Below, one piece after another: positions 12,236 to 13,482 of a stretch of DNA of 13,482 nucleotides. A model generated the notes under the pieces. The model was given only the letters and a program-made list of their open reading frames with translations. It had not been told where the DNA came from and made no database searches. Every line of letters starts with the position of its first letter. Position 1 is the first letter of the stretch. A program made the translations under genes and the position numbers. The DNA lies in the IMG/VR virus record IMGVR_UViG_2541047885_000013, positions 1 to 13,482 of that record, one strand, 5' to 3'. Source of the DNA: a virus (Duplodnaviria; Heunggongvirae; Uroviricota; Caudoviricetes).

Positions 12236-12343
12236 ATGAAATCAAAAATCAAATCGCTACTGGTCGCTGGTTATAACCACGGTTGGTTAAGTATTTCGTT
12301 TGTCGATTTCTGGTTTAAAAATCTCAATCTGAGGGAATCATGA
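12236..12343 (+). CDS. Small hydrophobic peptide, 35 aa (MKSKIKSLLVAGYNHGWLSISFVDFWFKNLNLRES)
   Basis: Hand-translated; AGGTGA lies just upstream of the ATG; its stop overlaps the start of the primase-like gene (ATGA). Confidence 0.35.
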   Translation: MKSKIKSLLVAGYNHGWLSISFVDFWFKNLNLRES

Positions 12344-13266
12344 CGCCAAGTGAACTCAGCGACCTGCTTTGGGCGCAGGTTGACAGGGTGGCTCCGCACC
12401 TGTTGCCAAACGGCAAGAAAGAGGGGCATGAGTGGGTTGCCGGTAACGTCAACGGTGACAAGGGAAACAGCCTTAAGGTCAACCTTAGCGGCAAGAAAAA
12501 ATGGGCTGATTTCGCTGAGGGAGACGGCGGTGACATGCTTGATTTGTGGATGGCGTGTCGTGGAATTAACCTGCATCAGGCTATGCAGGAAGCGAAAGCC
12601 TTTCTCGGAATCAAGGATGACGATCACCATTTCGATGCCAAACGTGAGAAGAAATTCTCCAGACCTGATCGCAAGAAAATCGCCCGCTATGTTACCAGAA
12701 CAGAATCCCATCTTGAGTACCTGCAATCGCGTGGCATATCGCCAGAAGTCGTAAAGCGCTACGAGGTTGTAAGCGGCAAGGTGTGGAATGGAGAGCGGGA
12801 ACTGGATGCTCTGGTGATTCCGTACAAACGCGATGGTGAGTTGTTGCAGGTCAAGCGAATCAGCACTGAGCGCCCGGACGGGAAGAAAGTCATTATGGCA
12901 GAAGGTGATTGCGAACCTTGTCTGTTCGGATGGCAGGCTCTGGACGCTGGCGTGAGGGCGGTTGTACTTTGCGAAGGCGAAATTGATTGTATGAGCTATG
13001 CGCAATACGGCATCTCGGCGTTATCCGTGCCGTTTGGTGGAGGGAAAGGCGCTAAGCAACAGTGGATTGAGTTTGAGTACCACAACCTCGACAGGTTTGA
13101 GGAAATATTCATCTCGATGGACGTTGATGATGTTGGTCGTGAAGCCGCAAGGGAAATCGCAAGCCGACTCGGTGAACATCGTTGCCGTCTTGTTACTCTG
13201 CCGTACAAAGACATTAACGAATGCCTGATGAATGGTGTTACCGAGGATGAAATCTGGCAGTACTGA
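12340..13266 (+). CDS. Toprim-domain primase-like replication protein, probably truncated at its 3' end by an IS insertion
   Basis: 308-aa track ORF with Toprim-like motifs (VVLCEGEIDCMSYAQYG and ISMDVDDVGREA). Its stop codon TGA (13264-13266) is the first three bases of the IS terminal repeat. Confidence 0.65.
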   Translation: MTPSELSDLLWAQVDRVAPHLLPNGKKEGHEWVAGNVNGDKGNSLKVNLSGKKKWADFAEGDGGDMLDLWMACRGINLHQAMQEAKAFLGIKDDDHHFDAKREKKFSRPDRKKIARYVTRTESHLEYLQSRGISPEVVKRYEVVSGKVWNGERELDALVIPYKRDGELLQVKRISTERPDGKKVIMAEGDCEPCLFGWQALDAGVRAVVLCEGEIDCMSYAQYGISALSVPFGGGKGAKQQWIEFEYHNLDRFEEIFISMDVDDVGREAAREIASRLGEHRCRLVTLPYKDINECLMNGVTEDEIWQY

Positions 13267-13482
13267 ACCGCCCCGGGAATCCTGGAGACTAAACTTCCTG
13301 AGAAAGAGGTAAACAGGATGACTAAAAATACTCGTTTTTCCCCCGAAGTCCGTCAACGGGCAGTCCGTATGGTTCTGGAAAGTCAGAGCGAATATGACTC
13401 ACAATGGGCGACAATTTGTTCCATTGCTCCAAAGATTGGCTGTACGCCGGAGACTCTGCGTGTCTGGGTTCGCCAGCATGAG
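13264..13482 (+). mobile_element. Left end of an IS3-family insertion sequence (IS629/IS1203/IS3411-like), continuing beyond the window
   Basis: Terminal sequence TGAACCGCCCCGGGAATCCTGGAGACTAAAC followed 54 nt later by an orfA start matches my recollection of the IS629-type left end. Confidence 0.7.
13318..13482 (+). CDS. IS3-family transposase OrfA (HTH), partial; continues past the window end
   Basis: Hand-translated [55 protein letters not shown], a typical IS3-family OrfA N-terminus (IS629-like from memory). Confidence 0.75.

Follow-up and report, generated by a model that had tools for sequence, protein, structure and literature searches.

The window analysed here is the whole 13,482-nucleotide (nt) stretch that makes up positions 1 to 13,482 of the IMG/VR record IMGVR_UViG_2541047885_000013, and is identified as part of a prophage lying at the lambda attachment site of Escherichia coli UMEA 3139-1. 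At its right-hand end, a gene for a primase-helicase of the phage T7 gp4/Twinkle type is interrupted by the insertion sequence (IS) IS629. The window is identical, wherever the two overlap, with L003, an extract of the parent scaffold KE701649.1 (GCA_000460275.1; L003 coordinates below refer to the extract), in which the window's last position, 13482, marks the start of exactly 1000 Ns (L003 11144-12143). The window thus ends at a scaffold gap within the repeated IS, which continues past 13482. The features at the interruption, in which ORF stands for open reading frame, aa for amino acids and bp for base pairs, are the following:

12340..13266, + strand: truncated ORF of 308 aa with a Toprim domain (ORF scan)
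12340..13263, + strand: 5' 924 nt (codons 1-308) of the T7 gp4/Twinkle-type primase-helicase gene (ORF scan, Pfam, phrog_239)
13260..13263, + strand: GTAC, left copy of the 4-bp target-site duplication (right copy at L003 12236-12239)
13264..13266, + strand: TGA stop of the truncated ORF, being bases 1-3 of the IS629 left inverted repeat (sequence, ORF scan)
13264..13482, + strand: left 219 bp of IS629 (219/219 identical to the complete copy at L006 1601-1819)
13264..13288, + strand: left terminal inverted repeat of IS629 (IRL), ~25 bp (comparison of both IS ends)
13318..13482, + strand: first 55 codons of IS629 orfA, the helix-turn-helix (HTH) N-terminal part of the transposase (Pfam HTH_Tnp_1, E = 1.3e-7)

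The left junction reads ...GAA ATC TGG CAG TAC TGA ACC GCC CCG GG..., with the stop at 13264-13266. When 12340-13482 was compared by megablast with 50,697 phage records, 38 of them matched query positions 1-924 at 91-98.5% identity, and among the matches listed phage similarity stops at query position 924, which is window position 13263. Alignment with the phages mEp043 and 24B makes the same point at the level of single letters: the window is identical up to ...TGGCAGTAC and wholly divergent from there on, with TGAACCGCCCCGGG (at greater length, TGAACCGCCCCGGGAATCC) past the breakpoint where mEp043 and 24B have ATCGGCACGG (at greater length, ATCGGCACGGCATCC). The point of entry lies between codons 308 and 309; the TGA at the end of the IS is read in frame, and no foreign residues are appended. 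A preliminary description of the window, made from its letters alone, had placed the IS in a primase-like Toprim gene and had equated the stop of that gene with the first three bases of the IS; the break in homology, exactly at 13263/13264, and the mEp043/24B alignment agree with both statements. Both ends of IS629 start with TGA when read inward; any between-codon insertion, in either orientation, therefore meets an immediate stop, and a stop codon provided by the IS is only to be expected here, not a special feature.

The preliminary description had pointed beyond the window for the other end of the IS and its target duplication. The right end, a second GTAC and the remainder of the gene are all to be found in the parent scaffold, with nothing deleted. 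After the gap, the last 92 bp of the IS occupy L003 12144-12235 and end ...CCCGGGGCGGTTCA (at greater length, ...CAGGAAACCCGGGGCGGTTCA); GTAC comes next and then ATCGGCACGGCATCC. Reading the left junction as ...CAGTAC/TGAACC... and the right as ...GGTTCA/GTAC/ATCGGC, GTAC stands at both ends of the IS and only once in intact phage alleles (CAGTACATCGGC), and it is therefore a 4-bp target-site duplication. IS629 duplicates 3-4 bp of its target (PMC3271280).

The 957 nt after the IS hold an uninterrupted frame of 318 codons which, added to the 308 in front of it, makes a protein of 626 aa. This rejoined protein is identical with gp55 of phage mEp043 at 623 of its 626 residues; the 5' 924 nt have 98.5% nt identity with mEp043 gp55 codons 1-308, and the 3' half is 99% identical. 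Compared with mEp043 gp55, the rejoined gene has no frameshift or stop codon in either half, and no deletion. The absence of visible decay or sequence loss from both halves suggests that the IS629 insertion is recent. The helicase half has been kept, not deleted: it is displaced 1314 bp downstream, without a start codon of its own. The two visible ends of the IS (219 and 92 nt) and 999 more would add up to 1310; the count on the scaffold, with its 1000 Ns, comes to 1311, and the number of Ns is perhaps an estimate. The data are consistent with an IS of full length and single-copy structure at the locus.

The inserted element is identified as IS629, of the IS3 family, a name that it takes from the annotations of depositors. 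Many plasmids carry IS copies with which its visible left part (13264-13482) agrees at every one of 219 bases (100% identity, E = 1e-110), too close a match to be fortuitous. The complete copy used for comparison, on plasmid NZ_CP023348 (L006 1601-2910), is 1310 bp long and matches all 219 nt in the window and 91 of the 92 nt (99%) of the right end; it encodes a 108-aa OrfA (HTH_Tnp_1) and a 296-aa OrfB (rve, DDE) that overlap at AAAAAATGATG. It is, in turn, 99.4-99.5% identical over 1310 nt to the 'insertion sequence:IS3 family IS629' of the Stx-phage records LC567824 and LC567828, and 99.9% identical to an insert under the annotated int of phage 21 (AF017626.1 731-2040, strain EC38). At the locus itself the IRL, TGAACCGCCCCGGGAATCCTGGAGA, and the right terminal inverted repeat (IRR, ending ...TCTCCAGGAAACCCGGGGCGGTTCA at L003 12235) match at 23 of 25 positions, the first 14 of them perfectly, and have 5'-TG...CA-3' termini. 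The orientation of orfA is that of the phage early rightward operon; of its sequence the first 55 codons can be read, and of orfB the final ones, the remainder of both lying in the 1000-N gap. The earlier assignment to the IS3 family can thus be narrowed, on the strength of the ends, the HTH_Tnp_1 match and the near-identity to annotated copies, to IS629, of which IS1203 and IS3411 are isoforms. Another IS3-family element, IS911, is found in the nin region of phage Sf6 (AF547987.1), among the lambdoid/P22-like phages.

What the insertion has separated are the two enzymatic halves of a replication protein. The 308-aa product has a Pfam Toprim_2 match at residues 209-296 (E = 3.4e-12), and its full-length homologues, of 626 aa, carry AAA_25/DnaB_C at about residues 355-594 (Pfam). 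On phrog_239 ('DNA primase/helicase', 801 positions) the N half takes up profile positions 9-306 and the C half 310-618. The helicase half, intact and located after the IS, has a Walker A motif (GVNGHGKT) and a DnaB-like/RecA-like core; this C-terminal RecA-like hexameric helicase domain is present in the rejoined gene and in the homologues and absent from the 308-aa product. The rejoined protein matches structures of T7 gp4 (5ikn, E = 1.8e-23; 6n7i; 1q57), with an alignment that goes to gp4 residue 541, of Twinkle (8e2l, E = 1.2e-13) and of the isolated T7 primase fragment, 1nui, with residues 130-248 of which the Toprim domain of the 308-aa protein aligns. The break between Y308 and I309 falls on Q253/V254 of T7 gp4, where the primase fragment (1nui, 1-255) gives way to the helicase core; when residues are counted backwards from the Walker-A lysine, K318, we take this to be the inter-domain linker. 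The IS is placed by these comparisons almost exactly at the domain boundary, and the predicted product is a primase fragment that has lost the whole helicase. The preliminary description had supposed a native C-terminus to be missing, possibly a helicase, and had looked to homologues extending past the break: the 38 phage records do continue beyond residue 308, and it is the DnaB_C/AAA_25 segment that full-length homologues, of 626 aa, carry there. In all, the breakpoint, the family of the IS, the origin of the stop, the lost helicase and the other end of the IS are as that description had them or had expected them.

The N-terminal part of the protein has a peculiarity of its own. A Cys4 zinc-binding domain like that of T7 gp4 was not found there: residues 1-190 give no Pfam zinc-ribbon match and C73 is their only cysteine. 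The same residues (12340-12910) have the spacing of a DnaG/gp4-type zinc ribbon and its Gly/Asp pattern (…GNSLKVNLSGKKKWADFAEGDGGDMLDLW…), with the four cysteines absent. The zinc-binding domain is degenerate, like that of human Twinkle.

Searching for exact copies of the 308-aa protein returns EQW97009.1, 'hypothetical protein G914_00787 [Escherichia coli UMEA 3139-1]', and also Logan assemblies. The source assembly calls a 350-aa ORF (L003 12144-13196) from the edge of the gap, fusing right-end codons of the IS to the helicase half; this is a spurious gene call. For annotation, G914_00787 and the 350-aa call that follows it are two halves of one primase-helicase pseudogene.

The remainder of the window, together with L003, sets the split gene in its context:

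1-1284, - strand: 427-aa pectinesterase-family ORF, presumably ybhC, the gene adjoining lambda attB
1331-1345: exact lambda att core, GCTTTTTTATACTAA (sequence match)
1419-2489, - strand: lambda-type integrase, 356 aa
2467-2685, - strand: Xis (gene call in L003)
7191-8102, - strand: RecT
9065-9391, - strand: N (gene call in L003)
9814-10515, - strand: CI repressor (HTH and Peptidase_S24)
10585-10800, + strand: Cro-like protein (gene call in L003)
10917-11198, + strand: CII
11372-12232, + strand: lambda O-type replication initiator, intact, partner of the disrupted gene (Pfam Phage_rep_O, E = 1.2e-37; phrog_277)
11726-11850: probable replication origin inside O (repeats D1, D2)
12236-12343, + strand: conserved 35-aa ORF, MKSKIKSLLVAGYNHGWLSISFVDFWFKNLNLRES (phrog_21848, E = 4e-26; gene call in L003)

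The left arm is a mosaic of known lambdoid phages. Beyond the split gene L003 has nin genes, Q, holin, lysozyme and Rz, in a region of mosaic resemblance to Sf6- and HK544-like phages. The preliminary description had regarded the immunity and integration genes as intact, and int, xis and cI do look so, as do cII, O and the origin. The last of these has four 19-20-nt palindromic iterons (TGTCAC-N8-GGTGACA) at 11726-11811, spaced 20-24 nt and followed by an A-rich tract; this layout, across 11726-11850, is in our view that of ori-lambda. The 35-aa ORF follows O and runs up to the primase-helicase gene, with whose start its stop overlaps (ATGA); it is kept in mEp043 (where it is unannotated) and in phi24B, and phrog_21848 is a family of unknown function. 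No lambda P-type DnaB loader family is listed by Pfam for the genes called between O and the nin genes. The primase-helicase gene occupies the position of the P-type loader, the module consisting of O and its own gp4-like helicase-primase.

We judge it highly probable that IS629 hopped into the primase-helicase gene of this lambdoid prophage and, the helicase half being lost from its product, crippled prophage replication in a manner reversible in principle. A replication defect is, from the sequence, very likely. The O module relies on its own helicase-primase, with no P-type loader, and therefore the O-origin complex, deprived of its replicative helicase, would assemble no replisome; theta and rolling-circle replication should then both fail after induction. 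Excision and early transcription on induction are still to be expected, int, xis and att being present. N-modified RNA polymerase would probably transcribe through the IS, and the nin genes, Q and the late genes might be expressed. A single genome copy and no concatemers would, at that stage, imply negligible packaging and phage yield. 'Grounded', as the preliminary description had it, is an imprecise label, because with int, xis and the att core present excision should be possible. Since the helicase half is displaced rather than deleted, the lesion is reversible in principle, and precise excision of IS629 could restore the gene. The IEE protein stimulates IS629 excision, and lacZ function has been restored in this way in O121 strains (PMC9943667, PMC9397093); the defect discussed here may, by analogy, be reversed by IS629 excision, stimulated by IEE in some strains.

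Several considerations weigh against a replication-dead prophage with a simple insertion. The defect is read from the sequence and from the biology of lambda and T7. The missing activity might be provided in trans by another prophage of the cell, and the structural genes lie beyond the DNA that was read, so that further prophage defects there are possible. The insertion preserves the frame (1310 + 4 = 1314 nt, exactly 438 codons), and a helicase-domain polypeptide could therefore be made; there are, besides, homologues of the helicase half that stand alone. The interior of the IS, lastly, consists of 1000 Ns in the one assembly that reaches across it. The matter of the frame is what would permit the helicase half to be re-expressed from ATGs in the right end of the IS, in which case the gene would have become two, the prophage still replicating with separate proteins. 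From IS position 1102 to the end (210 nt, 70 codons) no stop interrupts the gene's frame, which has ATGs at 1234 and 1252, and the second protein would be made up of 21-27 IS-encoded residues, Q-Y and residues 309-626. The break at the T7 gp4 linker would suit such an arrangement, as would the stand-alone helicases, of ~305-315 aa and ~40% identity, which start at a similar point (Achromobacter P0128, with 35 member sequences, is an example); in the search with the C half such proteins, of 300-315 aa, ranked below top matches that were for the most part partial entries, or entries of odd length, from Logan, ENA and NCBI. The lack of decay in the 3' half would fit as well, but is equally explained by a recent insertion. 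A restart for the helicase half looks unlikely, the ribosome-binding sites being weak: the candidate starts have Shine-Dalgarno pairing of -1.9 to -3.9 kcal/mol (the two ATGs -1.9 and -3.5), compared with -6.1 to -8.8 kcal/mol for the native starts of cII, O, primase and orfA. Among the alternatives a TTG at residue 360 pairs best, and a protein begun there would lack the linker; no sigma-70-like outward promoter was found at the right end of the IS. In T7 gp4, moreover, it matters for primer hand-off that the two domains are physically coupled. A functional split is, on this balance, quite unlikely; were it true, it would be a domain fission by a mobile element caught in the act, mimicking the separate helicase genes of distant relatives.

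The gap bears on what has been inserted. With the figure of 1000 Ns maybe a placeholder, it might hide more than one IS629, two copies flanking other DNA, for example, or a partly deleted IS; the gene would be disrupted all the same, but simple excision would not restore it. This we hold to be very unlikely: a matching 4-bp duplication, and a gene that resumes exactly where it left off, are what a single simple insertion leaves behind, and the visible ends and gap together come to 1311, against 1310 for IS629. That the junction might be an artefact of assembly or scaffolding, with the gene intact in the real genome, is suggested by the window ending in a multi-copy IS, which is where short-read contigs typically break. 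The junction lies, however, 219 bp inside contiguous assembled sequence, and the next contig of the scaffold has the complementary right junction with its duplicated GTAC. An independent Logan assembly of the raw reads (SRR958575, L004), 8253 bp of which are identical with the window, includes 25 nt of the IS; since its junction is the same, a chimeric contig is ruled out, and we reject the artefact as highly improbable. There is next to no likelihood of the 308-aa protein being by nature a short primase, with Toprim alone, that happens to abut an IS. Nothing but the ORF itself speaks for this, all close homologues (in the 38 phage records and in 249 complete E. coli genomes) run past residue 308, and the missing 318 codons follow the IS immediately, in frame and at 99% identity to mEp043; this proposal is likewise rejected. 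The database proteins P0016-P0019 have chimeric or deleted N-termini and are uninformative on natural protein ends. One of them, P0017 (554 aa; 6 contigs, the longest 233 kb), has residues 1-~205 of O fused directly to the primase-helicase from about residue 270. This may be a genuine deletion in the replication module or else a chimera made in assembly; the N-termini of P0016, P0018 and P0019 are odd in a similar way.

The junction region is uninterrupted in 249 of 5426 complete E. coli genomes, and the IS junction occurs in none of the 5426; an exact search with the junction 40-mer gave 0 matches in GTDB species-representative genomes, IMG/VR and JGI metagenomes. UMEA 3139-1 and identical Logan contigs are the only sources in which the IS junction has been seen, and with no match in the collections searched the insertion would therefore be specific to a strain or clone. 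A 1507-bp contig from an unrelated Logan run (SRR35601302, L005) has an allele of the gene with synonymous differences and stops right at ...CAGTAC, where IS629 is inserted in the window. Its end is either a coincidence (there are many partial genes in the collection) or an assembly branch point between IS+ and IS- versions at this site.

The locus serves as an example of how one IS hop can turn an intact-looking lambdoid prophage into one that is probably replication-dead, with both junctions and the duplication in evidence and no sequence lost. It bears on predicting whether a prophage is inducible, and the possible reversal matters for calling a prophage 'cryptic'. Beyond the strain it has little significance, leaving knowledge of IS3 elements, primase-helicases and prophage decay unchanged. 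Inactivation of prophages through IS insertion is textbook material.

IS629, a well-described element, splits prophage genes in E. coli O157 and other hosts of Stx phages, each gene becoming two predicted proteins; in Stx2a phages roi, a lysozyme gene and a DNA methyltransferase gene have each been interrupted by it (PMC4587872, PMC3271280). The element in those prophages (of O157:H7 and in other Stx phages) is the same as the one described here, with its 1310 bp, TGAACCGCCCCGGG termini, OrfA/OrfB and 3-4 bp duplication. What sets the present case apart is its host, UMEA 3139-1, a clinical isolate outside O157, and its target, the primase-helicase gene in a prophage at lambda att; two Stx-phage papers (PMC4587872 among them) yielded no mention of IS629 inserted into this gene.

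The replication module has relatives of two kinds. In the orthologues, which are mEp043 gp55, ES18 gp61, epsilon34 gp52 and those of Sf101 and phi24B ('P'), with 91-98.5% nt identity, the same O and Toprim-helicase module is found, and the same neighbours: cII, a DUF2740 ORF, O, the 35-aa ORF, the primase-helicase and then the nin region. The orthologues are uninterrupted at 626 aa, whereas the copy in the window is split by IS629. That of the Stx2 phage phi24B (vB_EcoP_24B, record L002, gene 'P' at 4001-6907) has 968 aa, with a LAGLIDADG/Hint intein inside the helicase domain. The same primase-helicase gene has been targeted by two kinds of mobile element, IS629 here and the intein in phi24B. 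T7 gene 4 and Twinkle are the more remote relatives: the rejoined protein is like them from the Toprim domain through the superfamily 4 (SF4) helicase core, at only about 25-30% identity, and the 308-aa product corresponds to the T7 primase fragment. The partners of the rejoined protein, an initiator of the lambda O type and an origin with iterons, have no equivalent in T7. Primase-helicases of the gp4/Twinkle type and modules of O with a Toprim-helicase are known and widespread.

In its predicted phenotype the prophage resembles replication-defective lambda prophages (O or P mutants) and 'grounded' or defective prophages in general, in which, likewise, a single lesion in a replication gene leaves immunity and integration intact. 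Established lambda genetics leads one to expect, for such a lesion, that induction takes place and the genome is not amplified. Unlike theirs, the lesion here is an IS insertion, and potentially reversible, rather than a point mutation or deletion. What has come to light at this locus is already known in kind: the element is a known one, the site is new, and neither structure nor mechanism holds a surprise.

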